In this document: positions 1,666 to 44,107 of the stretch, in pieces
Position numbering within the stretch: the first letter of the stretch is position 1
Layout of the letters: every line of letters starts with the position of its first letter
NCBI RefSeq assembly: GCF_964355755.1
Contig: NC_092673.1
Span: forward strand, 16,340,948 to 16,404,947
DNA length: 64,000 bases
Source of the DNA: Antedon mediterranea
Taxonomy: Eukaryota > Animalia > Echinodermata
Direction of reading: 5' to 3'
Notes under the pieces: model-generated
What the model was told of the DNA's origin: nothing
Database searches by the model: none
Seen by the model: only the letters and a program-made list of their open reading frames with translations
Program-made: the position numbers and the translations under genes

Positions 1666-1773
1666 GATTGTGACACTCCATTACATTCATATCTGAGGAA
1701 AGGATATACACCTACCTTAGCAATAGTGACGTGTCTCATTCAGCATGGGGCACCAGTAGCATTGCAAAATGAG
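1666..1773 (+). CDS. Ankyrin-repeat exon A, DCDTPLHSYLRKGYTPTLAIVTCLIQHGAPVALQNE (phase 0-0)
   Basis: ttccag|GAT ... GAG|gtaaat; 108 nt; TPLH and L-x-x-GA ankyrin motifs. Confidence 0.85.
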
Positions 1774-3242
1774 GTAAATGTACAAGGATTTGCTAGTCTA
1801 ATAGGCTAACATTATATAGATCTGCTGAAGTAAACCATTTAATGAGAGAAAAAAGTAAGCACATTAACAAAAATCAAATTTGATTAAAACAAACCAAATA
1901 AAAATAGTTATATATGATTTATGATCTGATTTAAAGTGTACAGTTACCTATCATATAACATAAATCTTTAATTTTCTTAATGAACAAAAAAAATTTTTTT
2001 TTTTATATATATTCAGTTAATATTAATTAACAATTATTGACAATGGTCTAATTAATTGTAAATATGAAATAAAATGTGACAACTACTAAACAACTAAAAA
2101 TGTTTATGTTAAAAAAATTTATATAAAATCTGATTTTAATAAAAAATAATTATTAATTAATAACCTGCTCCCTCCCTTACCTTACAAAAAATGCTTCTGT
2201 CATTCTATCCAGCTAATTATAAACATAGCCTTAAACTACATCTGGAGATCCTTTTCCAACCTAGGATCTTTTTGTGCAAATAATTTGCCACAAAAGGAAG
2301 AGAAATGTAAATAACGTTTAGCCTTTAGTTAGTGGTTTCCAAAATTTAAAATGTTTGAGCAATGCAATTTTAAAAAGAAAGCTAATATGAAATTATTCTT
2401 TTCAAACTGAATGCTTTAAGAACAGTTCCGTCTCTTATCTTATGCCTTTTTTGGGAAAAAATGACATTATTAAAGTTGCTATTTAAAATTTGATACTAGT
2501 AGTGCCAACAGATGGTTCTTAAATACATGACCTTTGGTAAATAACTGAAAATTGTTTAAGTACAAAGCAAATAAATACAGATATGTTGGAATTTATGTAG
2601 TCAAATATAATTGTCATCCTGAGAATTACCTTAATTTTGTTTATTGCATGGTATTGTTCACCAAATTCCTGTCTTGGTACATTTGATGATGGGATGGTAT
2701 CAGGCTTCATGATATATGATATTATTTTCATTGAGGCAAATGGTTTAAACTAAATTTGTTATCGTTAATAACTTAACTTAATTATGATATTGGTTTCATT
2801 GGGTGTTAAAAATCAGTACTGAAAGTATGTACCAACTTTCTCTACCATTGAGTATAAATTCTAGAAGTTGCACTTAATTTACTGAAATTTCCCATTGCCT
2901 AAATTTATATATAAATTAATTTAACTGCTTATCGTATTGTTAACATCTAAACATTTGTTTGTACAATTTTATGAAATATGTATTTTATTAATGTTAAAAT
3001 TTTGTGATTGATATTGTACAGTAAGTAGATTTTAATGATTACTTACATTAAGTAATAGGCTAACAATTACTAGATCTGATCCATGGTAATATATTATATT
3101 TTGTTTTCATTTATTAATAATGATAATTAGGATTTTATCACATTATTTAGCAGTAATTGTTGTTGTTTGTATTGACAAAAAAAACAAATTTCACATAGTC
3201 TGTTGTCAGTTTATAAACTTCATGATTATCATTCCTTTCCAG

Positions 3243-3353
3243 GATGGTGAAACTCCATTACATTCATATCTGTGGAGTGAATATACTGTACCTACCTTAG
3301 AAATAGTGACGTGTCTCATTCAGCATGGGGCACCAGTAGCATTGCAAAATAAG
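3243..3353 (+). CDS. Ankyrin-repeat exon B, DGETPLHSYLWSEYTVPTLEIVTCLIQHGAPVALQNK (phase 0-0)
   Basis: ttccag|GAT ... AAG|gtaaat; 111 nt. Confidence 0.87.
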
Positions 3354-4279
3354 GTAAATGTACAGGAATTTGTTAGTGTAATAAGCTAACATTATAGATC
3401 TGCTGAAGTAAACCATTTAATGAGAGAAAAAAGTAAGCATATTAACAAATATCAAATTTTATTAAAACAAACCAAATAAAAATAATAACTAAATAGTTTA
3501 TATGATTTATGATAACTGATTTAAAGTGTACAGTTACATATAAATCTTTATTTTTCTTAATGAACAAAAAAATCTATTTTTTTTTTTATATATTCAGTTA
3601 TTAATTAACATTTATTGACAATGGTCTAATTAATTGTAAATATGAAATAAAATGCGACAACTACACTGACTAATAATAAAATAGCAAATAAAAAATGTTT
3701 ATGATGTTAAGAAAATTAATAGAATCTGATTTTATTAATTGATTAAGGAAAATGGTTTAACCTAAATTTTTTTTAAGCGTTAATATCTAATATCTAAATT
3801 AGCTTAATTATGATATTGGTTTCATTGGGTGTTAAAAATCAGTACTGAAAGTATTTACCAACTTTCTCTACCATTGAGTATAAATTCTAGAAGTTGCACT
3901 TAATTTACTGAAATTTCTCATTACCTAAATTTATATGTAAATTCATTTAACTGCTTATTGGCCTCATATTGTTAACATCTAAACATTTGTTTGTACAATT
4001 TTATGAAATATGTATTTTATTAATGTTTACATTTTGTGATTGATATTGTACAGTAAGTAGATTTTAATGATTACTTACATTAAAGTAATAGGCTAACAAT
4101 CACTAGATCTGATCCATGGTAATATATTATATTTTGTTTTCATTTATCAATAATGATAATTAGGATTTTATCACATTATTTAGCAGTAATTGTTGTTGTT
4201 TGTATTAACAAAAAACCCCAATTTCACATAATATCTGTTGTCAGTATTTATAAACTTCATGATTATCATTCCTTTCCAG

Positions 4280-4390
4280 GATGGTGAAACTCTATTACAT
4301 TCATATCTGGGGAGTAGTATACATGTACCTACCTTAGAAATAGTGACGTGTCTCATTCAGCATGGGACACCAGTAGCATTGCAAAATAAG
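4280..4390 (+). CDS. Ankyrin-repeat exon C, DGETLLHSYLGSSIHVPTLEIVTCLIQHGTPVALQNK (phase 0-0)
   Basis: ttccag|GAT ... AAG|gtaaat; 111 nt. Confidence 0.87.
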
Positions 4391-5312
4391 GTAAATGTAC
4401 AGGGATTTGCTAATGTAATAAGCTAACATTATATAGATCTGCTGAAGTAAACCATTTAATGAGAGAAAAAAGTAAGCACATTAACAAAAATCAAATTTTA
4501 TTAAAACAAACCAAATAAAAATAATAACTAAATAGTTTATATGATTTATGATAACTGATTTAAAGTGTACAGTTACATATAAATCTTTATTTTTCTTAAT
4601 GAACAAAAAAATCTATTTTTTTTTTATATATTCAGTTATTAATTAACATTTATTGACAATGGTCTAATTAATTGTAAATATGAAATAAAATGCGACAACT
4701 ACACTGACTAATAATAAAATAGCAAATAAAAAATGTTTATGATGTTAAGAAAATTAATAGAATCTGATTTTATTAATTGATTAAGGAAAATGGTTTAACC
4801 TAAATTTTTTTTAAGCGTTAATATCTAATATCTTAATAGCTCAATTATGATATTGGTTTCATTGGGTGTTAAAAATCAGTACTGAAAGTATTTACCAATT
4901 TCTCTACCATTGAGTAAAAATTCTAGAAGCTGCACTTTATTTACTGAAATTTCCCTTTACCTAAATTTATATGTAAATTCATTAAACTGCTTATTGGCCT
5001 CATATTGTTAACATCTAAACATTTGTTTGTACAATTTTATGAAATATGTATTTTATTAATGTTCAAATTTTGTGATTGATATTGTACAGTAAGTAGATTT
5101 TAATGATTACTTACATTAAGTAATAGGCTAACAATTACTAGATCTGATCCATGGTAATATATTATATTTTGTTTTCATTTATCGATAATGATAATTAGGA
5201 TTTTATCACATTATTTAGCAGTAATTGTTGTTGTTTGTATTAACAAAAAAAAAACAATTTCACATAATGTCTGTTGTCAGTATTTATAAACTTCATTATG
5301 ATTCCTTTCCAG

Positions 5313-5420
5313 GATGGTGAAACTCTATTACATTCATATCTGAGTGGATATACTGTACCTACCTTAGAAATAGTGACTTGTCTCATTCAGCATGGGGCAC
5401 CAGTAGCATTGCAAAATAAG
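5313..5420 (+). CDS. Ankyrin-repeat exon D, DGETLLHSYLSGYTVPTLEIVTCLIQHGAPVALQNK (phase 0-0)
   Basis: ttccag|GAT ... AAG|gtaaat; 108 nt. Confidence 0.87.
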
Positions 5421-6373
5421 GTAAATGTACAGGAATTTGTTAGTGTAATAAGCTAACATTATAGATCTGCTGAAGTAAACCATTTAATGAGAGAAAAAAG
5501 TAAGCATTTAACAAAAATCAAATTTGATTAAAACAAACCAAATAAAAAAATAACTAAATAGTTATATATGATTTATGATAACTGAATAAAAGTGTACAGT
5601 TACCTATTATATAACATAAATCTTTAATTTTCTTAATGAACAAAAAAATCTATTTTTTGTATATATTAATTAATTGTATATTAAGTACAAAGCAAATAAA
5701 TACAGATATGTTGGAATTTATGTAGTCAAATATAATTGTCACCCAGAGAATTACCTTAATTTTGTTTATTTCATGGTATTGTTCACCAAATTCCTGTCTT
5801 GGTACATTTGATGATGGGATGGTATCAGACTTTATGATATGATTTTCATTGAGGCAAATGGTTTAAACTAAATTTGTTATCGTTAATATCTAACTTAGCT
5901 TAATTATGATATTGGTTTCATTGGGTGTTAAAAATCAGTACTGAAAGTATGTACCAACTTTCTCTACCATTGAGTATAAATTCTAGAAGTTGCACTTAAT
6001 TTACTGAAATTTCCCATTACCTAAATTTATATGTAAATTCATTAAACTGCTTATTGGCCTCATATTGTTAACATCTAAACATTTGTTTGTACAATTTTAT
6101 GAAATATGTATTTTATTAATGTTTACATTTTGTGATTGATATTGTACAGTAAGTAGATTTTAATGATTACTTACATTAAAGTAATAGGCTAACAATCACT
6201 AGATCTGATCCATGGTAATATATTATATTTTGTTTTCATTTATCAATAATGATAATTAGGATTTTATCACATTATTTAGCAGTAATTGTTGTTGTTTATA
6301 TTAACAAAAAAAAAACAATTTCACATAATGTCTGTTGTCAGTATTTATAAACTTCATTATGATTCCTTTCCAG

Positions 6374-6481
6374 TATGGTGACACTCCATTACATTCATAT
6401 CTGAGGAGTAGATATACACCTACCTTAGAAATAGTGACTTGTCTCATTCAGCATGGGGCACCAGTAGCATTGCAAAATGAG
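6374..6481 (+). CDS. Ankyrin-repeat exon E, YGDTPLHSYLRSRYTPTLEIVTCLIQHGAPVALQNE (phase 0-0; absent from the ORF track)
   Basis: ttccag|TAT ... GAG|gtaatg; 108 nt. Confidence 0.87.
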
Positions 6482-7143
6482 GTAATGTACAGGGATTTGC
6501 TAGTGTAATAAGCTAACATTATATACATCTGATGTGGTAAACCATTCTATTTTGTTCTGGTTTACCACATTATTTAGCAGTAATTTTTACTGTATTGTCT
6601 CATATTATGGTATATCTGCAGCATTGCAAAATAGGGTAATGTAGGCTTACAAAGAATTGTCAGGACAATTTCACATTTTATTGTTATCAGTATTTATAAA
6701 CTTCAACTTCAGTATCAATTAGCCTCCATATTAATCAATAATATTACTACCTCAAAGAGTAGTATTATTTAATCAGACTTACAGATATAGAATTCTCAAG
6801 TGTTTGATTTTTTTCACATTTTTCTCTTTTTACACATAGCACATTCTAACAAGTTTGTTTTGATTTAGATATTCATTTATAAGTCAACTATTATTGTAAT
6901 GTGTTGTTGTTTTAATATTTCATTTGTATCTGGATAGTATCCAAATATTATTTTCTTTGAAAGTTTATAGTAAAACTATTTGTTGTTTTATATTATGGCT
7001 CAAACATTTCAACACATCTACCTACTGTTCCAAAGTAAACTTTTATTCAATTTGATGCGATGTGATGCGTAATTAAAGTGTGTTATATTGTATATCAATA
7101 ATTTCTCAAAAACTACTAATAACTAAACCCATTTTTTTAATAG

Positions 7144-7228
7144 GATGGAAATACACTTGTCTCTCTTTTAGAAAGTAACAGGTGGATAGAGGAGCAAAGT
7201 AAAACTGAAATTTTAAACTTCTTAGAAG
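7144..7228 (+). CDS. Ankyrin C-cap-like exon DGNTLVSLLESNRWIEEQSKTEILNFLE (phase 0-1)
   Basis: tttaatag|GAT ... GAA G|gtaagt; DGNT start continues the ankyrin register; 85 nt. Confidence 0.8.
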
Positions 7229-7649
7229 GTAAGTGAAGTTTTAATTATTGAAATTTTAGGATCAACTAGTTTCATTGCAAACGATAAAGATTTGATAGGA
7301 GGCTTTACTTTAAACTAGTTACAATAATCGAACGGGGGATATGCATTGTTAAGGAATATTTGAACTTTATTAATTGCACATAAATGTAAAATGTAGATTT
7401 TTTTTTTTAAATGTAATCTATTTTATATATAATGCTATGTACAATTGGTATTCGCATTCAAGGCAAACAATTTACGATAGGAGGAGATAAATATTGAATA
7501 TAAAAATCTAATTTTCTTGTTAAATCCCAGTTTTTGTTTCCACAATGGATGAATTTCCTTCACACATTTTAAATAATAATTCGTCTTCTTCGAGGAGCTG
7601 AATCATCGGATTTTCAGCGCGCCGTGCGTACCAGGTTACTACCGTAAAT

Positions 7650-8306
7650 GATGGCGCTTAATTAAAAGTTCTTAGTAGATATAGCTCTATTATCTATTAG
7701 CCTTAAAAGTTATCCCCTTAATAGATATAGCTCTATTACCTATTAAGCACCTACTAATAAGTAGATTTTAGGTAGATTTTAGATAGTTCCTAATAGGTTT
7801 TACCTCATTAGCATAATTCAAAACCCCCACTAATAGTGTTAGATAGATTTTTCACTATTTTCAATCTGTGAGTAACACAGTTGTATGCATCTATCTATTG
7901 TCTACTTACAATAGCTATACCAAGGGCTACCAGCAACCTATTAATAGACATAAACAAACTGATAATAGCCAGTAACTGTTAATAAACTATATATTTTATA
8001 CAATAGATAGATATGGACTACCAGATAGCTATTAGAAATCTATGAGTATCATATCTATCAACTGTCTACTTATAATAGCTATACTAAGGCTACCAATAAC
8101 CTATCAATAGACTATAAAGAAACTGATAATAGCCAGTTAAATATTAATCAACTATCTATTTTATAGCTGGGAAGTAGTCGTTCCATCGTTGACTCATTGA
8201 GTTAAAATCCTTAGTAGGCGAGATAAAAAGGTCTGCTAAAAAACTACTAAAAATAGAGCTATTTCTACTTAAGTCTACTTAAATCTACTAATTTTTTTAC
8301 TATGGG
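7650..8306. mobile_element. One-ended non-autonomous DNA transposon fragment (CMC/EnSpm-like)
   Basis: Dense ctatta/taatag sub-repeats ending in tttttttactatggg, similar to the ttttacctggg end at 59775; lies between about 130-bp direct repeats at about 7449 and 8344. Confidence 0.4.
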
Positions 8307-9217
8307 TAAAACCAATAGACAAATTCAAACTCCTCCTTCCCACATTCGCATTCGAGGAAAACAATTTACGATAGGAGGAGATAAATATTGAATATAAAAA
8401 TAAAACATTTTCTTGTTAATCCCATTTTTTGTTTCCACAATGAATGAATTTTCTTCACACATTTTTAAGCCAGCTTAAGAATACTATTTTTCTGTATGTA
8501 AAATTAAGCATCCCACAAAGCATAACCAAGCTCTACCAAGTGTATAAAGAACAGTGCCCTTATTGTAGGCCTTTAAAAATGCAATTCCAGGTCTATATTG
8601 GCAAAATTCAGCCCAAACCATGGTGGGCTCAAGTTCAAGTTATCTTTATTGTGTTTTCACACAGGTATAAAAACAAATTGGTTACTGGTCATAAAACTGA
8701 ATATAAATAAAAACATTAAAAAAGTTCAAGGCATATTAAAAACTTACGATAGGTGGTCAATAATTCCTACTGCCAAATTGTGAATCATACCAGTTATTCA
8801 TTTCAGGATTACTTTATTTTCACTTTACACAGTGAAACCATCATAATTTGAACCGTATAGAAATGATTTAGATTCAGGATCTCTGTCAAAAAATGTTGCA
8901 TAACGCCTATATGTTTGGATGAGTTTGAGTTCCACACAATTTTTAGGACATAATTAATAACTTTAACTGTATACATTTTAGTTAAAAAAATACATTATTA
9001 TTATAGTATATCCAGAATGAATGAGGTTTACCATTTTCATGTATAGTCGATTGCTTGTACACAGTCACCCACAAGCTTTTATATAACCTTATACCATTGA
9101 AAAAGTTTAAAGATACCATATGACAATTCAAGAGTTTTGCCAAGCTGTGACTTTTAAAATAGTGTTTTTTATGAAAATATGTAATATGTAATATTTTTGT
9201 TTTGTGCATTTTTTTAG

Positions 9218-9310
9218 ATTTACCAAGTACTGTTGATGAGCAATTTCTAACACAATTTCAGAAACATACAAGTGACAAACAGAAAACAAAACTTCTTAAG
9301 CCAGAGAGTG
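9218..9310 (+). CDS. Linker exon 1, DLPSTVDEQFLTQFQKHTSDKQKTKLLKPES (phase 1-1)
   Basis: tttttttag|AT ... AGT G|gtgagt; 93 nt. Confidence 0.78.
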
Positions 9311-12796: not shown

Positions 12797-12874
12797 ATTT
12801 ACCAAGTCTTGTTAGTGAACAGTTTGAGAAACTAATGGTTGAAGAACAGAAAACAAAGCTTAAACCAGTGCTTG
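12797..12874 (+). CDS. Linker exon 2, DLPSLVSEQFEKLMVEEQKTKLKPVL (phase 1-1; paralogue of the 9218 exon)
   Basis: ttttttag|AT ... CTT G|gtgagt; 78 nt; shares DLPS..EQF..QKTKL and the downstream gtgagtttaagaat. Confidence 0.78.
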
Positions 12875-12922: not shown

Positions 12923-15900
12923 TAGACCGGGCGCCCAGAAGATTTATTCATGTGAAAAGCCACAAAAGGTCTGATGGGCTGATTATGTAGATATATGGCC
13001 AAGATTCAATAATCAATATTGCTGCCGGGTCCTATCCTGTAAATTTACCCTGGGGACACCAAATAGGAGGGGTAAAAAATGGATTTAATCATGTGAAAAG
13101 CCACACGGATAAAAGTTGTTGGACATTGTTCCCATATGTGTATACAATGTTAAAACAGCAATGACAGCAACTTTATCCTGTAAGTTGCCCGAGACAGTAG
13201 CCCCAAGTGACCACTAAAAAATGGTGTTATTCACCACACGGCTAATTCCTTTTGATTGCAACTGTTACACATTGGGGTGCACAAAAATATTATTGACAGC
13301 AACTTTATCCTGTAAGTTGCCCCAAACAGTAGCCCTAGACAGTAGCCAAGAAATGCCCGTTGGGCTATACAAAATTTAATCACACGAAGAGCCACACGGC
13401 CAATTCCTTTTTTATTGGAACTGTTACGTCTTGGGATAGACGAAAATACTGATGACAGCAACTTTATCCTGTAAGTTTCCCCAGACAGTAGCCCCAGACA
13501 GTAGCCCAGAAATGCCCGTTGGGTCTGGGCCTACAAGATTTAATCACACGAAGAGCCACACAGTCAATTCCTTTTTTATTGGAACTATTACGTCGTGGGA
13601 TAGACAAAAATACTCATGACAGTAACTTTATCTTGTAGGTTTTCTCAGACAGTAGCCCCAGACAGTAGCCACACGGCCAATTCCCTTTTTATTGGAATTG
13701 TTATGACTTGAAATATACGAATGTATTCACGACAACACGTCGGCAGGCTCCTTAACTTCAAGTTTACCCATCAAGTTACAATTTAAATTTACCACCATGT
13801 GACACGAATACGGTTTTGTCACCTATTATTGGACCATAGTGATCATTCTGGACATCGTTTATAAGAAACTGTGCTAGAACTTCCTTAAATTCTCCATTCT
13901 TTAATAGATCTATACCTTTCTTTTGCTGTTGTTGATCCGCTCCAGTTATAATGAATGTGTTCTTGGCGTTCTACTCTGCACCTCTCTTTAATCTTTCGAC
14001 ATCTTCTATTGATTGTTCTATATATTTGTCCAGCGACATGAGAACAGAATTTCCACTGGCTGAACATACCTTAATCATGATATCTAAAACAATTTTAAAT
14101 CGTTTTCCCATTATGTAGACACATTATGACGAGGTAAAATTTCATGCAGAACAAGTCCGCCATCAAAGAGAGTTGTGTCGGTCACAGGAGTATCTTCCTT
14201 ATGTGAACCAGATTGTCTTGTTTCTAAAATCTTCGCAAAAATTGCCTTCTCTGTTTTTGTTGGAGTACCATCGAATGTGCAATAGCTAGTGGTATTTCAG
14301 TGATCGTTAGTACATACTGTAATGCAAATCTGTAGTCGTCTTTGATAACAAGTATCCAAAAGCATCACGAACACCTTCAGCTGCACCAAGAGCTTTGTTG
14401 CATTTAACGATTTCTTCTTCATGTTTGAAGCAGTACAATTGCGTACCTTTATACGCTTTACCGTCTTTAATAATCTTGTTTCGTCTGAAACACATTCTTT
14501 GTAAAATAGCTGCCGTGATAGGTATCCTCTCTGTAGTGTTCCCAGCAAATATGTACTATAGTTATGTCATTTACAGCTTTACCTGTAGCAATATTTACTA
14601 ATGTGGTTGGTGAATCAGTGGGGAATGGATTGCATGTACTATTTAGCTTAATGAGAAACTTGTCTACATCATTATTATCTCTCTCAATCCTCCGTCGACG
14701 TAACTGGTTAGCTGGTGTTTCACCGGGTTGAATTCCACTCATGGACTTCATTTCAGACACAGGAATACTCCGTTGAGTGAGATTTACGCAACAACGACGA
14801 AATGCACTCTCTGAGTTCGCAAAAGCTGTATTTCCAGTTGCCGATGACGCAGCATCTCTGTTAACAGTTTGCTCTAATGTAAGATCTACGTTTTTTCGTT
14901 CGTCGTGTTGAAAAGGCACCGGCTTTTAAAACATCTAATGCTGCAGAGTCCAAATTCTTCATTTTTTTCAATAAAAAGTGACCCCCAACGAGCATAATTT
15001 GGCCGGTTCAGATTTCAACCAAATACGGTAGTACATTGATGTACAGAATCACATCATTCGTTATTACTGCACGCTGGAATTGACGATACAAGCGGTTGAT
15101 AAGGTACACGTAAATAGCCCAATATGCGGCAGTGTTGCCAAATTCACCCTTTATAGTACGATGTAAAAATTCTTCATATTCATTAGGAAGTATTAAGAAT
15201 TCGTCACTGTCGGCAATTTGATTAGGCGCATTAATGTCGTCCGTTGGTATTGCTCGAACACTTTGTAGCAAAGTATCATCTTTCATATAGTAGGTACCCA
15301 GGAATCGCTTAAACAATTCTTTCTCAAAGGCCATAGCAGTGATTTGATGTATTCTGGTGCATCGGTTGTATAATTTACCATGGATGAAACCATTATCAAT
15401 CAATCAATCAAATCAATCAATCAAATCAATCAAAGTAACATTTATTTCTCTTCTTTTCTTTCATAGAATATATAATTACAGTAAATATGATTAAAATATG
15501 AGGGGCAAGATTCCAAAAAAGCGAAGCTTGTATAAGGCAGCCCATAAAAACTGAAACAAAAAACAGGACAACACAGGAACCGGAAACAGGACAAAAACTG
15601 TAATGAAGACTTTTAGTTTCAGGGTACCGAAAAGACTAAATAAAGTCTTAAGTGACCTCTCTGCCAGTATACCCGATTCAGTTAGAATATATTCGATCCC
15701 AGAATCAGAAATGTATGTTCCAACCGCTCCAAAAAATGCCACTTCGATATGAAAGTGAAAAAGTGAGTGAGTGATGAAAGTGAGTAAAATTACAAGTCTA
15801 TCAAAAGCTTTAAGTGCCACGTCACTGGATGATACAGCATTTTTGTCTCATCTGCAACTTTACGAGATCGAATCATTGTCTCTTGCACAACATCATTTCT

Positions 15901-17989
15901 TGTTGTTGGTTATAAAATTTGGTCCATGTATGCAATGGCAGTTAAAGGAAATGGATCGTTAACGAACGTTGAGTATAAGCCATTGAACAGAGGAAGTTTT
16001 CAATTAGATGATAAGATTAGCCAAACTAAAGAGAATAACTTGCATCGGATTCACTTATTTTGTTCCTGGTCTTTTTCTTCAAATTTAAACTTGGCAAGTT
16101 TTAGATTTGAATAAAATAGTGGTACTATTTTCTCTGCTCCGTCAAATTTCCGCCTAGGTCTTCCAGTGACCAAACTGACCGGCAGTCCTTCCATCTCAGC
16201 GGTTTGCCCCTGAAGGACATTCTGATACGCAATGCGAACTGTAACATTGAGACTATTTTTACCATCCAGGGTTTCCATGTTTAAATCGTAATTGTCCCAC
16301 GCAGTACCTGTAAAAACAAAACATATCAATATATACACATAATGTACTGTGCAATTTGTCACCTTGATTATTGATACTAATTACTAATTTCATTTATATT
16401 TTTCATTAAATTAAAAATATTTATATTACCTGTAGCCAATAGAGGTTGCAACAATAAGCCAGTGGGTGTCTCCAATTCACTCAAAGAACATGTGTATGCT
16501 ATTTCGGTCTCCAGACGTTTACATTCATCATAGCTTATTGTATGACTGAGGCGATTTAAAATAGTGATTGCTCCCTTAGATCCAAGCATGGACGTTAAAC
16601 CATGGAGAAATAACTTATTTCTCCATGGTTAAACCAAGACCTAACGATGTATTCTTCCAGGGCCTGACAGTACCTCGTGAAGTTGCAAAAACAATATCCG
16701 GTGACAGTGATTGCGTTTTTCTCATAATTTTTCAGATAATCCACATACAAATGTTTGATAAAACAATTTAGTCAGAGGTGGTAGTGGTGAACATTGTTTC
16801 ATTGTGTGAATAGATTTCGGTGAAGGAATTTTTCTTTTTTTCCATTTTCAAGATTTCTGACCGAAGCGCTAAACCGCACATTGAATTGTTTCATCATTTT
16901 CATTGAGGTCTTTTAACCGTGATTTAGCTTTATTGACGCTCATGTCTTCAGGGTATAAAAAGTTTCCAGTCTTGTTTGAGTCTTTGCTAATATTTAATCT
17001 ATCTCTAAATGTGGTCATTAATTTAGTAACTAATGGCTGACAAGCAAAAGAACGAATATCATCGTCAGTACCTCCGACTGCTTTATACTGTTCTTTGTAC
17101 AAATCCATGATTTTAAAGGCATATTTTGGTATACGTTTACAAATTATTTCATTTTCAACGTACCTCACCAGCCCATTGTATGCTTCTTCGTGTGTTTTTC
17201 TGTTTCTACTTATTACTACTTTCTGGGGCTACTGTCTGGGGCAACTTACAGGATAATTTTGCTGTCATGTGTATTTTTGTCTATCCCAAGACGTAACAGT
17301 TCCAATAAAAAAGGAATTGGCCTTGTGGCTCTTCGTGTGATTAAATCTTGTAGGCCCGGACCTAATGGGCATTTCTGGGCTACTGGCTGGGGCTACTGTC
17401 TGGGGCGACTTACAGGATAAAGTTGCTGTCATGAGTATTTTTGTCTATCCCAAGACGTAACAGTTCCAATAAAAAAGGAATTGGCCGTGTGGCTCTTCGT
17501 GTGATTAAATGTTGTATGGTCCAACGGGCATTTCTGGGCTACTGTCTAGGGCTACTGTTTGGAGCAACTTACAGGATAAAGTTGCTGTCAATGATATTTT
17601 TGTGCACCCCAATGTGTAACAATCAACAATCAATCAACAGTTGCTATGCAAAAGGAATTAGCCGTGTGGCTCTTGACATGAATAACACCATTTTTTAGTG
17701 GTCACTTGGGGCTACTGTCTCGGGCAACTTACAGGATAAAGTTGCTGTCATTGCTGTTTTAACATTGTATACACATATGGGAACAATGTCCAACAACTTT
17801 TATCCGTGTGGCTTTTCACATGATTAAATCCATTTTTTACCCCTCCTATTTGGTTTTCCCAGGGTAAATTTACAGGATAGGACCCGGCAGCAATATTGAT
17901 TATTGAATCTTGGCCATATATCTACATAATCAGCCCATCAGACCTTTTGTGGCTTTTGACATGAATAAATCTTCTGGGCGCCCGGTCTA
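12923..17989 (-). mobile_element. Academ-type DNA transposon 1 (degenerate, about 750-bp TIRs)
   Basis: TAGACCGGGCGCCCAGAAG...CTTCTGGGCGCCCGGTCTA termini; 3-bp TSD TAT; internally repetitive long TIRs. Confidence 0.85.
13760..17200 (-). pseudogene. Fragmented Academ transposase (N-terminal/catalytic part), with one intron at 16308-16429
   Basis: Ordered motifs LNRLSHTISY, WDNYDLNMETLDGK, FHIE..F, GKLYNRCTRIH, DLTLEQTVN across frameshifted ORFs; a GT-AG intron joins LLATG to TAWDN. Confidence 0.75.
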
Positions 17990-19557
17990 TATTGTGATTA
18001 AAATGGTATTTCAGTATAGTAGAGTAGAACTAATGAAAAAAAGGGGCCAACCTCAAAAAAATTGCAACAAAAGGTTTTTCAACGGATTTTGGTAGTATTG
18101 GGTCTACTAAACAACAGAAAAAAAGTCTCAAGAATTTGCGACCCCCGGAAAGTGGTTTTTTTCAAGATGGCCGCCAAAATAGATAAAAAGTGAAAATGGC
18201 CATACCTCCTAAACTACTTGGTCTATTGATATAATTTTGGTACCAACATACTCAGAACATACATATTTATATTCGCTATAATAGAAAATTTTGGCCAAAA
18301 TTGACCGGAAATACCATTTCTGACAATTTGACCTTTGACCTTGATATGTTGTATCTTGGTAACAACTGACCGTAGGGAAACAAATGATGGCTCAAATTGT
18401 TCAGAATGTACATATTTACATTTATTGTAATGAGACATTTTGTCAAAAAATGGTTGGAAGTAAAGGTTATTGACCTTTAACTTTATCTATGTAGAATTTC
18501 CATATCTCGGCAACTATGTGTGGTAGAGATTTAAAATTGGGCTCTAAATACTGAGAAAATACTTATTTATATTTACTCTAATGAAACAGTTTGACAAAAA
18601 ATGACTAGAAACGACATGATTTGACCATTGACCTTGATGCTATATTTTGATAATGACTGACTGAGATACACTATTTATGGCTCAATTTGTTCAGAATATA
18701 ATTATTTTTATTTCGTATAATGGTCTAATCTACCCATGGAATTAAGAGCTTTCCTGGGAATCAAGTAAACTGTAATATTTATAAAGACTTTTAGAATATG
18801 AGTTCAAGTTCAAATTGTTCAGAACATACTGTATACATTCTTAATAATAATAGTGTATAAAAAACCCGAAAAGTAAACAAAAACAAATAATAATAATTTT
18901 AAATTTCTAATTACGGTATAGCAGCAGTTGATTGGATATTGTGCATGTATTTAGTACGGCATCCTAAACAACTGTTCCAACTTCGTCTTCATCGTCATCA
19001 ATCTCTCTATCTACGTTGTTCCATTCTTCTAGTTGACACACTCCACAAACTGAAGTACATGCCAATCCATAGCGTCTACAACTGCAACATACAGTTTTAC
19101 ATCCAGTAGTACAGTTACAAAGGATGATTTTCAAAGTTCTTCTGGAGCAGCAGTTTCAATCGTCATTATTGGCACAAATGTTTTATTAAAAACTTCCCCG
19201 ACTTGGCAGCATCCATGGTATTATCTTTCTTTATCCATTGCATGATTTGATAGTATACTCTAAGACTGTGACATTTTGTAGCAGATGAGGTTGGTGGTAG
19301 TAGTTGTTGAGGTTTGATAAATTATTTACCTTCAGCAACTTTCTTATTAAACAGCTTGCATCTGTAGCTATTTAGGAAATCCAGTGACTTGGCTCCAAAA
19401 AGAATAGACATGGCCTTTAATCCAAACTCCTCGATAGTTTGAAGTTTCTGATGCGGTTGAGTGAAAATATCGGCACACATCAGTGTCATATTCTAGGTTA
19501 CTTTCTATCAATTTATTGGTTTATTTGCCTTCCTAAAGATGTCTTTGGCTTCGAAGA

Positions 19558-20794
19558 GTGAGGGTGGAAACGAACTTAGTTCATATTTCATTACATCGTC
19601 CAGAGAGATTTGTCCTAACTGAATTTGATGGAAAGAAAGAAGAATTCCTGTCAAGGCATGAGAACAAACACAAATTTATCAACATGCTTTCATATGAGCT
19701 ACAGAAAAAAGAATGTCCTGTACGACATGCAGCCAACGAGTTATGGTTATGATGCTTGGCTACCACTCCAAGGGTCCTGAGTTCAAGTTCCGTCACATGT
19801 CAGGATTTTTTCTAAGGACCAAATTACTCCACTCCCAAAGACTTGTAATAAGACTTTGTTTTGTAGAGCATCTTGTGTATATGCTTGTCTTGATCAGCAA
19901 TAGCTGCATGGATCACCCACATTAAATATGGTTTAAAAAAAACAAAAAAAACAATGCCGATGTTGACATTGCTCTGGCAACAGTTGAAGTCTCTGAACAT
20001 AATACAGTAACTTTGATTGGAGAAGACACAGACTTTACTGGTACTTTTACTGTATCATGTAAATACAACAAACCGAGAAGTGTACTTCAGATTAGACAAA
20101 GGAAAAGATGGGCCTACTAGAGTGATTAATGTAACCAGTTTGAAATCTGTTTTAGGATATAAAATGTGAACTGCATTACCCATAGTGCATGCATTCACTG
20201 GTTGTGATTCGACGTCTAGGATTTTCGGAATCGGCAAGAAAGCGGCATTTAATAAATTGATTGAAAGTAACCCAGAATATGACATGTGTGCCGATATTTT
20301 CACTCAACCGCATCAGAAACTTTAAACTATCGAGGAGTTTGGACTGAAGGACATGTCTATTCTTTTTGGAGCCAAGTCACTGGATTCCCTGAATAGCTAC
20401 AGATGCAAGCTGTTTAATAAAAAAAGTTGTTGAGGGTAAATCATTTATCAAACCTAGCCTCAACAACTACCACCAACGTCATCTGCTACAGAATGTCAGT
20501 CAAATCATGCAATGGCTATAGAAAGATAATACCATGGATGCTACCAAGTGGGGATGGAAAGTTTGTAATAAAACATTTGTGCCAATAATGACGATGGAAA
20601 CTGCTGCTCCAGAAGAACTTTTGAAAATCATCCATTGTAACTGTACTACTGGATGTAAAACTGTATGTTGCAGTTGTAGACGCTATGGATTGGCATGTAC
20701 TTCAGTTTGTGGAGTGTGTCAACTTGAAGAATGGAACAACGTAGATAGAAAGATTGATGACGATGATGAAGACGAAGTTGGAACAGTTGTTTAA
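19558..20794 (+). pseudogene. Academ XPG/FEN1-like nuclease plus Cys-rich C-terminus remnant
   Basis: ADVDIA, GEDTD, HAFTGCDSTSRIFGIGKK, LPPT, WGW, APEELLKIIHCNC..C..C.C..CT..C motifs with stops and frameshifts. Confidence 0.75.
19739..19952 (+). mobile_element. tRNA-derived SINE-like insertion in the Academ coding remnant
   Basis: B-box-like gagttcaagt head and A-rich tail; interrupts HAAN|ADVDIA. Confidence 0.55.
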
Positions 20795-20821
20795 GATGCC
20801 GTACTAAATACATGCACACTA

Positions 20822-23225: not shown

Positions 23226-23726
23226 GTAGTATAGAGAGGTTTGAGTCCCATGCACACACTCCTTATAGTGTAAATATCTTTTTAAATGGTTACATATTAT
23301 TTTAGTTACTGTTCATGTATTTATTACAACAGATGGCATGGTAATGATACCACAACCAAAGTTGGCTGCAATAATATTAAAAACATGAAAAACTATTTTT
23401 GTTATAAAATTAAATAGAACTAACACTGTGCAAGTAAAGTTGAAATAAATGAATTGAGGAAAATAGACAATCTTACATTGCTGTATATAAATTGTTCTGC
23501 TAGTTAACTTAATGACATGTTCCAATATAAGCTGTATTATCTACTACTGTACAGTGTTAATATAATCTTGACAATAAAGATGATTTGGTACTATTTTTGT
23601 TAAGGAGTTATACTCTAAAGAGAGCTAACATAGTAAATTTGTCATGGAAGAAAGTATAATTGTATTATGAAGGAGATTGTAACAATTACTATATAAACAC
23701 AATTAAAATAATGTTTCATTCTGCAG

Positions 23727-24262
23727 ATCGAATGGAGTTAATTGTGGACTCTACAGGTGGAACTCTTCACCTTAAGGATGAAGGCATAAAGTTACAGATA
23801 CAACCTGGAGCAATAGAAGAAGGAAAGACAGTTAAAATATCACTAGAAAATATTTTGGAGGAAACAGACATGCCTGTACTTCATCCACTTGAATCAATAA
23901 TATCACCTATTGTTAAATGTGGACCAGAAGGCACCATCTTCAACAAGCCCTGTTTACTGTCATTTCCACACAATGCTGTAAATGAAGAGTTTTGGGAATT
24001 CTCTCTACTTTTTAAAGAATGCTTTCAAGATAAATGGAAAAACCTCACATTAGAAATTGATGAAAAGGACATGAATTTTACTTTAAACAAGGGCCGATGT
24101 TTTATAAATTTAAATCATTTCTGTTTTTCTGCAATTAAAGGTCGAGTAAGAAATATCTTTTATGCTAAAAAAAGTATAAAGTTGGGCGTTTTTGGAAAGG
24201 CGCTTGTAAATGAAAATGAATATCGACTTCGAGTAACATTTTTTAAGCCAGGAAAACAAAAG
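23727..24262 (+). CDS. ZU5 domain exon plus start of UPA (phase 1-0)
   Basis: ctgcag|AT ... AAG|gtaatt; VDSTGGTL, GIKLQIQPGAI, ISPIVKCGPEGTIFNKPCLLSFPH and LNHFC motifs typical of ZU5. Confidence 0.9.
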
Positions 24263-24908
24263 GTAATTGTTAATTTTTTAGTAAACTGTATTTGAATTCC
24301 AATTTCATGGAACTTTTATTTTGTAATCTTTTATGCACAAAAATGTTCCAAATCATTTATTAGATGATCGTTGCTTTTATAACTGATAAATTATTTTATT
24401 AACCTGCATAGGTATTTATATATATATGCATAGACAATTTAAGCAGAAGGTTTCCATTATTTTCATGAAAAGGGAAATAAATACACAGAAAATCTCATTT
24501 CTTTATTTTTTTCCCAGTTTTTTCACCTTTGTGTAATTTGTGTACAAATATATTTTTAAATATGTAAATATGCTTATATGATAGAAATATTTGTAAAAAC
24601 AGCTCAAATAAAATGTTTCTTATAATATATTTACTGTAGGGGCCTACCGGTGACATTGATTTCTTCAATAGAGTTGAAATTTTTTATTAAACTTTCTTGG
24701 GTTATCCTCAGTTCATTCAGTTAATATTGTTTTCTTGTACCTTTTCTTTTTTTTTCTAAATCTGTATCTGTACGTAAAATTGAATGAACTGAAATAAAAT
24801 GAATGAAATAAATAGAATAAATGAAGAGCCATGAGGTAAAAGAGATAAAATTGCCTCTGTTTGTGGTATAACCAGGAAAGAGACTTACTTTCCATGTATG
24901 AATTTCAG

Positions 24909-25043
24909 GAGGTTAATGAAGAACAAGCATACCAGGGCGACAAACTTTTAGAACCAGGTACAGTACGGTCTTTGTATAAAGACTTGGAAATAAGAGTTGA
25001 AATACCAAATCAGAAATGGAGAGTAGTGGATAAAAGAGTAAAA
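24909..25043 (+). CDS. UPA-like exon, EVNEEQAYQGDKLLEPG...WRVVDKRVK (phase 0-0)
   Basis: tttcag|GAG ... AAA|gtaagc; 135 nt; E...G.KLLE pattern as in UPA segments following ZU5. Confidence 0.8.
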
Positions 25044-26584: not shown

Positions 26585-26726
26585 ATTATCCTTGCTGAAT
26601 ACCTATGGTGTGAAAGACCATCAACAAAATTTTATTTAGAAAGAGTTAATTCATCAACAAATGATCTAAGGGCAACCTTATCACTAAAACAAGATTCAAA
26701 TGATATTCCTGAAGTGGAAGTGGATT
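26585..26726 (+). CDS. UPA-like C-terminal exon, IILAEYLWCERPSTKFYLERVNSSTNDLRATLSLKQDSNDIPEVEVD (phase 0-1)
   Basis: ttttttcctag|ATT ... GAT T|gtaagt; 142 nt, open. Confidence 0.8.
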
Positions 26727-26886: not shown

Positions 26887-26910
26887 GTGATATCAGGTCT
26901 TCAATCGCAA
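26887..26910 (+). CDS. 24-nt micro-exon (phase 1-1)
   Basis: tttgttacag|GT GAT ATC AGG TCT TCA ATC GCA A|gtatgt. Confidence 0.6.
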
Positions 26911-27515: not shown

Positions 27516-27545
27516 GAAATGTTGAACCACCCGTAACCAACCCAG
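27516..27545 (+). CDS. 30-nt micro-exon NVEPPVTNP (phase 1-1)
   Basis: tttgttacag|GA AAT ... CCA G|gtataa. Confidence 0.6.
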
Positions 27546-28495: not shown

Positions 28496-29020
28496 CAAAT
28501 TTCAATGTCTTGCAAGAAAAGTTCAGAAAGTTAAAACATGATCTTGGCTTAGTCTATGTTGGTGAAAGATACCTCTTGCCAAGATGTTGTCTCTTTGATG
28601 AAATAGATTTAGAGACCCTTGCTGATCCAAATTGCACAGCAAATGATCTATTTAACAACCTCCATGACAAAGATGACATCTCACCTGCTGATATTAATAT
28701 CTTGTCGGAGATTGCTGATTTGTCACAGCTTAAAGATGCTGAAAATCTTATAAATCTGTATGTGATAGAAAATAAGATTTCAAAAACCGATAAACATACA
28801 CTATCCACATATAGGAAACGATTATGTAAGGCATTGAAACAATTTGACCCAAATAAGTTAAAAGATGTAATTGCTTTCTATGGATTGAGGCCATTAAGAA
28901 ATAGCATAGAAACCATTTGGGATTTAGTGTTTCACTTGGAGAGCAATGGAAAATTAATAAATGAATCAGAAAGAAAGATTTTTGCTGATCTGCTTGGACC
29001 AATTGCAAAGAATATACTTG
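28496..29020 (+). CDS. Tandem death-effector-domain (DED-DED)-like exon (phase 1-1)
   Basis: ttttttccag|CA ... CTT G|gtatgt; 525 nt; DLFNNLHDKDDISPADINIL, LSTYRKRL and IWDLVFHLESNGKL match by eye the DED pattern of caspase-8/cFLIP prodomains. Confidence 0.8.
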
Positions 29021-30214: not shown

Positions 30215-30245
30215 ATCCATACCAACAACAACACAACAACGACAG
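30215..30245 (+). CDS. Small exon DPYQQQHNND (phase 1-2)
   Basis: ttatttcag|AT ... GAC AG|gtatgc. Confidence 0.7.
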
Positions 30246-30598: not shown

Positions 30599-30633
30599 TA
30601 GCTTCATCAAAAGGATATATACATATTTGAAAG
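30599..30633 (+). CDS. Small exon SSFIKRIYTYLK (phase 2-1)
   Basis: ttctttttacag|T AGC ... AAA G|gtatta; phases match both neighbours. Confidence 0.7.
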
Positions 30634-30922: not shown

Positions 30923-30996
30923 ATCACTGGTGGATGATTCCAGTTTGTATTATTTTAATTGCAGTCTTTGTAAAATTTGTATATGGACTAGTATAG
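30923..30996 (+). CDS. Terminal exon encoding a C-terminal transmembrane anchor, DHWWMIPVCIILIAVFVKFVYGLV-stop
   Basis: gatttcag|AT CAC TGG TGG ... GTA TAG; about 20 hydrophobic residues immediately before the stop. Confidence 0.75.
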
Positions 30997-35810: not shown

Positions 35811-36036
35811 TTTATTATAATGTATCTTGATTTATATTACATTCTGTGATGAGCTGAATAGTTAAATAACATATTTATAGTTTTTTGTATTATATTGTTT
35901 TCAACAAATTTATAGTAGAAGGGAGAGAAAAACAAAAAAAACTGTAATATTAATCTTAACTCAAACTCATTTTGGTTGGAAACAATAATAATCATTGTTA
36001 AATTAATGACCAGTATTTTTATTTGCAGACAACACA

Positions 36037-36294
36037 ATGGCGTATTCTAAAACTGGGGATAGTTTCCAAAGTTTAAAAGCTGATCTTAGTAGGTACTTTA
36101 ACGGTGAAAAATACCGTTGGATAAGGTTCCTACTATTTGATCACTTGAGTGTCATTGAAATTACAAATCAAGATTTTAATGCAAATGACTTGCTCAATGA
36201 ACTTGAAGTCAAAGGTTTAAACTGGAAATTGAGGAAAAATTAGCAGATGATCCAAACAAAATTAAAAAGTTTGCAGGTTGTCTTGGAAAAAATC
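36037..36294 (+). pseudogene. Disrupted tandem-DED paralogue exon (internal deletion and frameshift)
   Basis: FQSLKADL..KYRWIRFLLFD..ANDLLNELEVKG aligns with the first half of the 28496 exon; a shifted frame then gives FKLEIEEKLADDPNKIKKFAGCLG, which aligns with its end. Confidence 0.7.
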
Positions 36295-37185
36295 AAACAA
36301 GGCCAACAGCCATTAAGTCACGTGCTACAATGCATAATGATACCGGACCAACCGACAGACAGACAGATCGACCGACCGACATAGTGAACTATAGTCGCGT
36401 CCACGCGACTAAAAAGGCATAATTTTGACGAATTTTTTAACTTTTTCATCAAAAACGTGCGCAAATTATCCAATTAGATGTGCTCGTATGACGTAATTTT
36501 AAGTCGAAATTGTTTAAAAGATGGTAAAATTATTAGAAAAGGCTGCAAAAACATAAATCACGCGAAAAAAGTATGTATTTAACGCTACGTGCGCACCACG
36601 CGCGTAAAAATTTGCGCGCGTATGGGAATTTTTGACATGCTTAAAATGACAAGAAACGCGTAGAAAGTTGATTAAAAATGAATTTTGCGCATTTTAAAAT
36701 TTTAAATGCGCGTGCGCGCGTAACTTTATGGCTTTGTGACTCATGGCAATTTTGTAAACGCTTAAAATTGCCTGAAACATACTCTTATTTCATCGAAAAT
36801 AAATTTTGAAAATTTTAAGCGCGCGTACGCATGCGTTACATGCGCTACGCACGTAATTGTATTGCCATATGATGATTTATGCCCTGAAATTTATGAGTAC
36901 CAAATTTTATTTAATTGTGATTCATGGTTGTGAAGATATGATTACAAACGTGATTTCGTTAAATCATGCGTAGACCGCGTAATTTTTTATTGCGCACCGT
37001 GAAAACATAACCACATCGATTCCTGGCCATAAGGAATATACTGTGAAAAATTGACTTATCTAGATTAAACTGATATCAATATAAGGTCAGAAAGCGATAA
37101 AACGCATAGTGATACCGGACCGACAGACAGACAGACCGACAGACCGACATAGTGAACTATAGAGTCGCTTCCACGCGACTAAAAA
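36295..37185. mobile_element. Helentron/DINE-like non-autonomous element(s)
   Basis: Two copies of a GACA/GACC microsatellite followed by hairpin agtcgc(g/t)tccacgcgact and an A-run (about 36340-36415 and 37115-37185). Confidence 0.6.
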
Positions 37186-37833
37186 CATACTACTTGGTAA
37201 TGGTATTTAATCTTCTTACAAAACTATTCCAAAGTTAATTGTAATGTAATTATTCATATCTTTCATTTATTTTAAAATTTTACATGATAGTATTTTAATT
37301 TAAATGATATCATTGTTGATACTATGCAAGTTGATAATGGAGTATTTTATTTATTAACTGATTATTTATAGGCGATAGTGGGAAGGATATTGCGTCATCA
37401 AGTCACCAATGTGAACAAAGTGAAGTTAATTATTCATAAAATAGTATAGAAAAACAAAAAGAATGATTATAATATTATGATTATTGTGATGATGATCAAC
37501 CAAATGATAATGACAATTGACAATAAAGATACTGTAAAAAATGTTGGATAATATGATACGATACGATAGTATTTATTGTCATTTTAACAAGGTAAAAATG
37601 AAATAAAAAAATAAATATATCGTCTTAATCATTTCAAATTAATTAATTAAATTTCAGAATATCACCGGGCGGTTTAGTTTTAATGTTCTGTTTATAATAA
37701 AACGTATTATAGATATAGATATTTGTATTTATGATGTTTGTTTAATCTACATTATTATTTTCTATTAAATTATCAAGTATACTACTGAATTCATTACCTA
37801 ATATTTGATACTTTGTTCTCTTCAACTGTGTAG

Positions 37834-38345
37834 CTCTCTCGAACGATGACTTTAAACAGTTGATTGCAGACTTTGCCAAATGGTTTGATGAACGGGGACT
37901 CCTTAACAGGCTAAAAGTTCTATTCATAGAAATAGTAGACGACATTAAAGAGTTGAAAAAGGTTACCAGTACAATTGATTTGTTAGCTCTTTTAATCAAT
38001 TCAGAGCTATTGAGTCGACAACGTCTTTCTGTCCTGTATGACACAATAAAAGTAACCGAACAATTTGACTTTCAGTCATCTATCACAAAAAAACTTTTTC
38101 CTTTCAGGAATATCAAGAAGTCTAAGGTAGTGTCACTACACACAGTAACTTTTTTTAATCTGGGAAAATCTCTTAGTGATCAAGATATAAAGGATCTTGA
38201 TAAACAATACAACTACCCTGTCCTTAAATATGCAGACAGCTGGAGTTTGATTTTGGATTTTGAAGCTCGAGGGTTGTTGGAGAAGACAGAATCAAATCAG
38301 TTAAGGTTTAAAAAAGATAAGAAAATAGAATTTTGGGAAGTTTAA
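37834..38345 (+). CDS. Second tandem-DED-like exon, terminal (may be part of the pseudogene)
   Basis: tgtgtag|CT phase-1 acceptor; open about 170 aa with LKVLF, IDLLALLINSELLS, FFNLGKSLSDQDIKDL, WSLILDFEARGLL. Confidence 0.65.
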
Positions 38346-43021: not shown

Positions 43022-44107
43022 GGTACTGGTACTGGTTCAAATAACCGTCTCACAGAGACATCTGGTAGCCATTGACTTGAAGTTGGCATTTGGATGTGTT
43101 ACTTTTAAATGTAGGCCTACAGTATGAGAGTGACTACTACCAAATTACACAGTCAAAAACAACTTATAAAACAGTTCATATATACAGTTAAAACATTGCT
43201 GGGAATTATAAATTTCTGTTGAAGCAGGCTCTAATGAAGTTGCATCTAGTAAGTTGACTTTGTTGTACAACTCTATCAAGTACTGATGGTATCTTCCGAC
43301 CTCTTCGTTTACTTTGTGTTGTGTGAAAAGTAAGAATTTTTGTAGGATCTTCATTTTCTTTTCTAATTACATGTCCGATCCAGTTGAATTGTTGCTTGTA
43401 GACATATTCTTCTAGCGGTTGACAGCCAGTAATTTTGTAGAGATCGTCATTATCAATTACGTAACGCCAGTCTATATAGTTTTCATCTGTTTCATCATCT
43501 GAGGATATGTCTACATGGTTTGGTGGGCAGACTCTTTGAAAGCCATTCACTAGCATTCTTCTTAGGAAGGTTTTGTATGTTGTGCTAAGTTTGGACATTT
43601 CACTTCCTGTTGCCCTCCAAGCATGGCAACCATAGGTGAGTCTACTCCTAACTAGACCATTAAGAAACATCATTCTTGTTTGTAGGTGGATCGTTCTGTT
43701 GGTAAGCAATGCCCTATTCTCTGCAAATGCTCCTTTGGCTGAATTGATTCTGTATTTTACTTCTTGATCTCCAATATGAACATCATTGTAGGTAGCCCAT
43801 ACACCAAGGTATCTAAAGTGTGTTACGTTGTTAATGTGTACGCCGCCAATTTGTATGATGCATCTTGGGTATTCTTCAACTTCCTCTTTCCAGTTCCATA
43901 TAATGGTTTCTGTTTTGGGGGCACTAATTCTTAGGCCAAATTCCAGACAAACTTTATTCAAGATGTTCACAATGGTTTGCAGTTCTTCTTGTGACCAGGA
44001 GCTTACAGCAAAGTCGTCAGCATAGCCACTTTCAAAGTCGTCATAGATGCCCCTTGATGGTGCTTTACATCTTTGAGCACGATTTGTAGCTTCAATAGGA
44101 ATTAGGT
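43022..44107 (-). mobile_element. 5'-truncated non-LTR retrotransposon (RTE-like) with an open RT C-terminal ORF
   Basis: ORF 43206-44111 with YADD, GLRISAPKTE, FRYLG, LTYGCHAW, WIGHVIR; 3' tail of CCAGTA repeats. Confidence 0.88.

Follow-up and report, generated by a model that had tools for sequence, protein, structure and literature searches.

The window, a 64,000-nucleotide stretch of the genome of the feather star Antedon mediterranea, contains a gene on the forward strand whose exons are listed in Table 1. An AG/GT splice model running from the exon at 12797 to the stop codon at 30996 encodes 523 residues and reproduces P0002, the NCBI protein XP_071948739.1, which carries the name 'UNC5C-like', without a difference. 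In order, the protein has a ZU5 domain (residues ~14-154), a UPA domain (~160-291), two helical units (302-478) and a tail that is hydrophobic. When the whole protein was scanned with Pfam, ZU5 was matched with an E-value of 6.5e-21, followed by UPA at residues 160-287 with an E-value of 6.5e-5, a score under the curated cut-off.

Table 1. Exons and motif of the ZU5-UPA gene and of the exons that lie upstream in the same frame
Feature	Position	Strand	Evidence
Five tandem single-ankyrin-repeat exons (1666-1773, 3243-3353, 4280-4390, 5313-5420, 6374-6481)	1666..6481	+	Phase 0
Exon after the ankyrin exons, in frame	7144..7228	+	AG/GT, phase fit; joint to 9218 in putative RNA run
Linker exon, also in Roc/Roc-COR paralogs	9218..9310	+	Joint 7228-to-9218 GT..AG in putative RNA run
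Linker exon with start codon of NCBI model	12797..12874	+	Paralog P0003 has same exon joined to ZU5
Exon: ZU5 domain, its last strand, start of UPA	23727..24262	+	Pfam ZU5 E 9.8e-22; UNC5B 3g5b E 6e-13; AG/GT ends
His-Phe-Cys motif (H144, F145 and C146 in XP_071948739.1), with the cut predicted at F145↓C146	24116..24124	+	Structural homology to NLRP1 and latrophilin-1 cleaved bonds
UPA exon 2	24909..25043	+	AG/GT; spliced model equals P0002
UPA exon 3	26585..26726	+	Spliced model equals P0002
24-base linker micro-exon	26887..26910	+	AG/GT; part of NCBI model
30-base linker micro-exon	27516..27545	+	AG/GT; part of NCBI model
Exon: likely tandem death effector domain pair	28496..29020	+	Weak Pfam DED; Foldseek of model
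Tail micro-exon	30215..30245	+	Splice model
Tail micro-exon	30599..30633	+	Splice model
Final exon: stop codon and, by prediction, a transmembrane tail anchor	30923..30996	+	Kyte-Doolittle; model helix

The helical pair is likely a tandem death effector domain (DED), judging by its modelled fold. Pfam gave a DED match to this exon with an E-value of 0.002, under the cut-off, and a phmmer search of the exon against the PDB matched no DED structure. A model of the exon (mean pLDDT 64) was compared with solved structures by Foldseek, and ranks 1-10 were DED assemblies of caspase-8, cFLIP and FADD together with the tandem DEDs of vFLIP (probability 0.85-0.98, E 0.1-0.26). The tail is the sole hydrophobic segment in P0002, with a 19-residue Kyte-Doolittle mean of 2.6 at residue 505, and a helix was predicted at residues 502-522 in a low-confidence part of the AlphaFold2 model.

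Two identities were considered and rejected. Neither an Ig/TSP1 ectodomain nor a transmembrane segment precedes ZU5 in P0002, by Pfam, or in the upstream in-frame exons, and the protein is therefore not a netrin receptor; its NCBI name reflects only similarity to the ZU5-UPA region of UNC5B. Pfam found one ZU5 only and no LRR or DD in P0002, so that it is not an orthologue of PIDD1 either. Pfam also found no CARD, the C-terminal domain of NLRP1 and CARD8; the C-terminal helical region matches DEDs in the Foldseek comparison.

The NCBI model is without ankyrin repeats. Upstream of its start codon, however, single-repeat exons are present (one of them was scanned and matched Pfam Ank at E 1e-4), and the frame is open without a stop through all 17 exons, with canonical splice sites, to give 777 amino acids. 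In a putative RNA run from another sample, for which paralogs may be the source of the contigs, GT..AG joints were found from 5420 to 6374 and from 7228 to 9218; the joint from 6481 to 7144 was absent among the 15 joints listed of 16. In paralog P0003 exons of the 9218 and 12797 types are joined to ZU5. Because the frame is open, some of the joints are seen in the putative RNA run and P0003 joins exons of the same types, the ankyrin exons are likely the N-terminus of the same gene. The gene start of this ankyrin-containing form was not found in the 64,000-nucleotide window. When the linker sequence was used as a query, two paralogs with Roc or Roc-COR were found, but among annotated proteins of 295-942 residues none combined ANK with ZU5.

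Paralogs with Roc or Roc-COR (P0159, P0160 and P0004) have exons that share 80-90% identity with the linker exon at 9218-9310. P0004 has the order Roc-COR-DED-ZU5 followed by a DED-like pair, and carries HF↓C. Ankyrin, Roc-COR, ZU5-UPA and DED modules have apparently been shuffled as exons in Antedon. Between positions 1400 and 6500 the ankyrin exons lie within tandem repeat units that include the introns, and a further ankyrin exon copy at 1486 has a stop after 16 codons.

The depth of contigs over the ZU5 exon (23674-24221) was ~18-38 times that of neighbouring unique DNA, a summed depth that is not a true copy number. It suggests that there are more ZU5 paralogs than the 10 annotated Antedon domains found. 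The pieces listed from the putative RNA run on this exon differ from the window at 17-23 places and begin near the acceptor, and for these reasons look like paralogs. No piece specific to this copy was present among those listed from that run, which came from another sample and speaks neither for nor against transcription of this gene copy.

Two more DED-like coding pieces lie downstream. The one at 36010-36330 is apparently frame-shifted, and the one at 37809-38342 shares 67% identity with the C-terminal end of P0001; both are likely paralog fragments. In the 10.8 kb intron that leads up to the ZU5 exon, broken transposon-like frames with a Cys-rich motif are present at ~13200-20800, which we take to resemble Academ elements. 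Pfam gave no match for four pieces of this region, and similar pieces occur at 47484-48241. A reverse transcriptase fragment of a LINE-like element is present on the minus strand at 43209-44129 (Pfam RVT_1 E 7.9e-7). Long tandem satellite arrays, recognized by repeated units in the sequence and its translations, occupy 1-650, ~50500-56300 and ~59700-60600.

Within the ZU5 exon, CATTTCTGT encodes His-Phe-Cys in frame, 389 bases past the acceptor and 138 bases before the donor. The surrounding sequence, as it was given in the initial annotation, is FINLNHFCFSAI. A sequencing error or assembly slip at the Cys codon was ruled out because contigs of 701 bases from runs X1, X3 and X4 of one sample, whose kind of run is not recorded but which cover the introns, each match the window at every base of 24009-24709; that sample may itself be the source of the assembly. 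A chance motif was ruled out by the composition of the exon; His-Phe followed by Ser, Thr or Cys is expected 0.037 times anywhere in its 178 residues and with a frequency of ~2e-4 at one named site. The motif reported in the initial annotation is thus present, in frame and in the ZU5 exon of an intact spliced gene. It had been placed at the ZU5-UPA junction. The site is indeed near the end of ZU5 but not exactly at the boundary, since in the model the last ZU5 strand comprises residues 147-154 and UPA begins near residue 160. CARD8 is likewise cut just before the last ZU5 strand (PMC3210808).

The position of the motif was examined by sequence and by structure. In the sequence alignment, H-F-C is opposite Q-L-G of the uncleaved UNC5B (3g5b), and F145 falls on chain residue L137. 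The UNC5B numbering was obtained with an offset of 540, which was hand-checked on C123/E126/C130/H84 = C663/E666/C670/H624 (PMC3210808) and is consistent with a chain start at 541. L137 is then L677, the residue that has been equated with F296 of the CARD8 F296↓S297 cut (PMC3210808). The protein also retains, as H95, the counterpart of CARD8 H252. H144 lies at -2 to Cys146, in the place of the general-base His of PIDD1 and Nup98, whose role has been described (PMC9162469).

An AlphaFold2 model of the ZU5-UPA region was built from 75 selected sequences, with block pLDDT values of 84-98 over residues 11-290. The motif occupies the turn that joins strand 137-144 to strand 147-154, with F145 directly before the last ZU5 strand, matching UNC5B L677 and CARD8 F296. 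The closest solved structure by VIA was UNC5B (Z 25.2, 274 aligned residues, 2.5 A, 24% identity), followed by CARD8 (Z 16.3, 244 residues, 3.7 A) and rat NLRP1 (Z 15.7, 247 residues, 4.1 A); the autoproteolytic folds of GAIN and Nup98 gave Z-scores of 7-10. Chain B of the rat NLRP1 FIIND (7crv), whose crystals are described as fully autocleaved, aligns from model residue 146 by the ends of the aligned range. Furthermore, the end of latrophilin-1 GAIN chain 4dlq_A, residue 837, falls on model residue 145, again by range ends only, and latrophilin-1 is cut at L837↓T838 (PMC3321182). Profile searches of solved-structure sequences did not reach FIIND or the PIDD1 ZU5, and no PIDD1 ZU5 came up in the comparisons with solved structures.

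The structure-based alignment, proposed in the initial annotation and here run on UNC5B, CARD8, rat NLRP1 and latrophilin-1, puts the Cys on the scissile position. Cys146 is the homologous self-cleavage position. The UNC5CL site has the letters HF↓S. The placing of the motif at a known scissile position is borne out by sequence for UNC5B and CARD8 and by structure for NLRP1 and latrophilin-1, and the sites with which it had been compared, HF↓S in PIDD1 and SF↓S in NLRP1 and CARD8, are confirmed in the literature (including PMC3210808 and PMC9162469).

A homologue search of 1.84 billion representatives gave 419 matches at E ≤ 0.001. The best 150 of the 419, together with P0001 and P0003, made a set of 152 proteins with 166 ZU5 rows; 45 rows without one or more motif columns were left out, as was 1 N-terminal fragment that had misaligned, and 120 rows were analysed. 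His-Phe was present in 84 of these rows, from the best 150 of 419, and the next residue was Thr in 49, Ser in 24 and Cys in 11, and nothing else; Ala, Gly, Pro, Asn and Arg were all absent. Where Phe was present without His, Ser, Thr or Cys followed in 18/21 rows, and where Phe was lost, in 8/15 (120 rows, best 150 of 419). The mean share of these three residues in the other alignment columns was 0.15. When 75 of the proteins were aligned independently with MAFFT, the picture agreed, with HFT 38 times, HFS 18 times and HFC 7 times. As the query itself has Cys, the count of Cys among the best 150 of 419 may be inflated.

The HF↓C rows from the best 150 of 419 comprise 5 of the 10 Antedon domains, 1 of Ptychodera flava, 2 of Patiria miniata and three further records. 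The remaining Antedon domains have Ser (3) or Thr (2), and Cys was found in 3 of the 4 Antedon subclades. The nearest paralog, P0003, is 82% identical over 163 columns and has HF↓S. Among the Antedon paralogs, XP_071948765.1 carries HF↓S and XP_071948780.1 carries HF↓T. The residue after Cys varies (F, S, C or Q). On a tree made without the motif columns, a single origin of all Cys variants was rejected; the 11 HFC rows do not form one clade (p-AU 6e-65) and 9 changes are needed. With Ser, Thr and Cys taken as one state, 21 changes were needed versus a shuffled mean of 30.7, with 0/500 shuffles as low, and this state is clearly inherited. The 9 changes for Cys compare with a shuffled mean of 10.5, with 45/500 shuffles as low. 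Cys is mostly at the tree tips, and its scatter near the shuffled expectation fits a state that is tolerated but short-lived.

Single-base changes that leave Ser and Thr lead to Cys with a share of 0.13 from Ser codons and 0 from Thr codons. Drift, or a site that need only be small, should also give Ala, Gly or Pro, and the lack of these in 84 rows argues that Cys was kept as a nucleophile. Selection would on this argument keep a nucleophile after His-Phe. Two further features of the alignment were noted. Thr outnumbers Ser at the position following His-Phe (49/84, best 150 of 419), and many rows are annotated 'UNC5C-like' or 'netrin receptor', whereas the human and rodent ZU5 sites characterised in the literature consulted are all Ser. 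Additionally, nine ZU5 rows (P0021, P0066, P0086, P0087, P0110, P0114, P0121, P0122 and P0134) end in His-Phe at the protein C-terminus, exactly where a cleaved N-fragment would end, as does the ZO-1 chain in 2kxr; these nine belong to the 45 rows left out of the count.

If the nucleophile is kept by selection, self-cleavage driven by Cys is likely, and from the alignment and the model the Antedon protein probably cuts itself between Phe145 and Cys146. The acyl-shift chemistry of Ser, Thr and Cys is textbook knowledge. All three nucleophiles are standard for this reaction (PMC3210808, PMC9162469), and the initial suggestion that Cys could serve in an N-to-S acyl shift is well founded, in that Cys is chemically able (PMC9162469) and occurs naturally in 11/84 His-Phe rows from the best 150 of 419. 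By the chemistry of PIDD1, Nup98 and NLRP1, Phe145, presumably buried, would strain the bond at the turn and His144 would activate the Cys146 thiol. The N-to-S acyl shift would produce a thioester, and its hydrolysis by water would complete the cut at F145↓C146. The N-fragment, which would be ZU5 without its last strand, likely together with the ankyrin repeats, would remain clamped on the C-fragment. It is predicted to have 145 residues by the NCBI start and at least 399 with the ankyrin exons; the predicted C-fragment (last strand-UPA-DED-DED-TM) has 378 residues and a mass of 43.9 kDa. The C-fragment layout put forward in the initial annotation, UPA-DED-DED with a possible transmembrane segment, probably holds, judging by Pfam, Foldseek and the predicted tail anchor; the ankyrin part of the N-fragment is likely. 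Because the C-fragment holds the last ZU5 strand, the halves would stay together, as in CARD8, and an anchor at the C-terminus, as predicted, would hold the effector half on a membrane.

The possibility was considered that Cys, the closest structural mimic of Ser and Thr, permits very slow cleavage or none, and that the protein acts uncleaved, as a ZU5-UPA-death-fold adaptor in the manner of UNC5B or ankyrin. UNC5B, which matches best in structure, is uncleaved, the Cys states lie mostly at the tree tips, and engineered Ser-to-Cys mutants of PIDD1, Nup98 or UNC5CL are said to cleave slowly or to need hydroxylamine. Moreover, the motif alone does not guarantee cleavage, as the correct H-X-S/T motif is insufficient in the GAIN domain of ADGRB2 (PMC13062082). 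However, UNC5B has Gln-Leu-Gly at the site, Cys recurs across the Antedon subclades, and if only size mattered at the site, Ala, Gly or Val would be expected there, none of which follows His-Phe in the 84 rows from the best 150 of 419. This explanation is a serious one that we consider rather unlikely.

A different outcome, which we regard as very improbable, is that the thioester forms but stalls or is put to use, as a thiol- or redox-gated switch or by passing the N-fragment to another nucleophile. Close paralogs swap Ser, Thr and Cys, as between this protein and P0003, which could tune the rate. A new N-terminal Cys can act as an oxygen-dependent degron, and the C-fragment would possibly begin with one. 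Inteins and Hedgehog do hand a (thio)ester to nucleophiles other than water. However, no sequence feature links Cys to a different partner or flank, and even the next residue varies. About as improbable is that the gene is decaying within a rapidly turning-over cluster of paralogs and that neutral drift replaced its Ser by Cys. A single base separates TGT from TCT or AGT, the read depth points to many copies, the truncated ankyrin exon at 1486 and the downstream DED-like fragments are signs of local decay, and the putative RNA run from the other sample lists no copy-specific piece, but the 777-residue frame is stop-free over 17 exons with canonical splice sites, Cys is common to five diverged Antedon domains, and drift would mostly yield other residues.

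Taking self-cleavage by Cys146 as the favoured reading, the protein can be compared with known systems. PIDD1 (LRR-ZU5-ZU5-UPA-DD, with HF↓S at S446 and S588; PMC3210808, PMC9162469) similarly combines a repeat domain, likely ankyrin here, with ZU5-UPA, a death-fold effector, likely a tandem DED here, and a site near the end of ZU5 where His-Phe precedes the nucleophile, putatively Cys here. The Antedon protein differs in having one ZU5, Cys, likely ankyrin repeats rather than LRR, a likely tandem DED rather than a DD, and a predicted C-terminal membrane tail. With the FIIND of NLRP1 and CARD8 (ZU5-UPA-CARD, SF↓S) it shares the fold, the scissile position and the His equivalent to H252, although identity is only 7-8%, the -2 residue is His and not Ser, and a likely DED pair and a predicted TM replace CARD. 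UNC5CL (TM-ZU5-UPA-DD), which autocleaves according to reviews, is also a membrane-anchored ZU5-UPA-death-fold protein, as is predicted here, but its anchor precedes ZU5 and that of the Antedon protein would be C-terminal. The cytoplasmic ZU5-UPA-DD of UNC5B is closest in structure, whereas UNC5B has an ectodomain, lacks the nucleophile and is uncleaved. The GAIN/GPS of adhesion GPCRs and Nup98 have a related autoproteolytic fold; these are extracellular or a nucleoporin, without UPA or a death fold. By these analogies the protein would work like PIDD1, UNC5CL and the FIIND of NLRP1 and CARD8, but it is the orthologue of none of them.

A natural Cys has already been described in the wider superfamily, as GPS cuts at L↓T/S/C (PMC3321182), and a general prediction has been made that ZU5/FIIND fusions of invertebrates undergo autoproteolysis (PMC8195603). 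No description of a natural HF↓C ZU5 came up in the literature consulted, although the supplementary alignments of PMC3210808 and PMC3482391 may bear on it. Matches for ZU5 with HFC were papers on the Unc5 ectodomain only, unrelated by title and the start of the abstract, and among the matches listed for Ser-to-Cys mutant names no title concerned PIDD1, Nup98 or UNC5CL. No Cys ZU5 demonstrated to cleave appeared in the parts of the literature consulted, which also included PMC10084454, PMC7883297, bioRxiv 2025.06.23.660994 and bioRxiv 2020.08.13.250241.

Following self-cleavage, loss or displacement of the N-fragment might allow UPA to cluster the DEDs at a membrane, where a caspase-8-type DED caspase might be recruited. 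Release by N-fragment degradation with recruitment of a DED caspase is a tentative proposal by analogy, and on balance an unlikely one. The functional degradation suggested in the initial annotation, and control by DPP9 or sequestration by DPP8/9, would be carried over from NLRP1 and CARD8 purely by inference. A broader and more speculative scheme, to which we give little credence, is that feather stars have expanded tripwire sensors like NLRP1 and CARD8, in which ankyrin baits would be destroyed and the membrane-tethered UPA-tandem-DED freed to form caspase-8-type filaments. Members with Cys would then add a thiol-gated step, through the thioester and a new N-terminal Cys degron, that has no Ser or Thr counterpart.

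Cys at the ZU5 self-cleavage site is thus a genuine variant that recurs in a crinoid family which has expanded. Should the Antedon protein cleave, a ZU5 that naturally uses Cys as its nucleophile would be at hand, and its paralogs offer Ser, Thr and Cys versions of nearly the same scaffold for tests of mechanism. The presence of a nucleophile, mostly Thr, at 84/84 His-Phe sites from the best 150 of 419 suggests that many invertebrate 'UNC5C-like' proteins self-cleave. These may be self-cleaving death-fold signalling proteins rather than netrin receptors, wired in this feather star to likely tandem DEDs and not to a CARD or DD.
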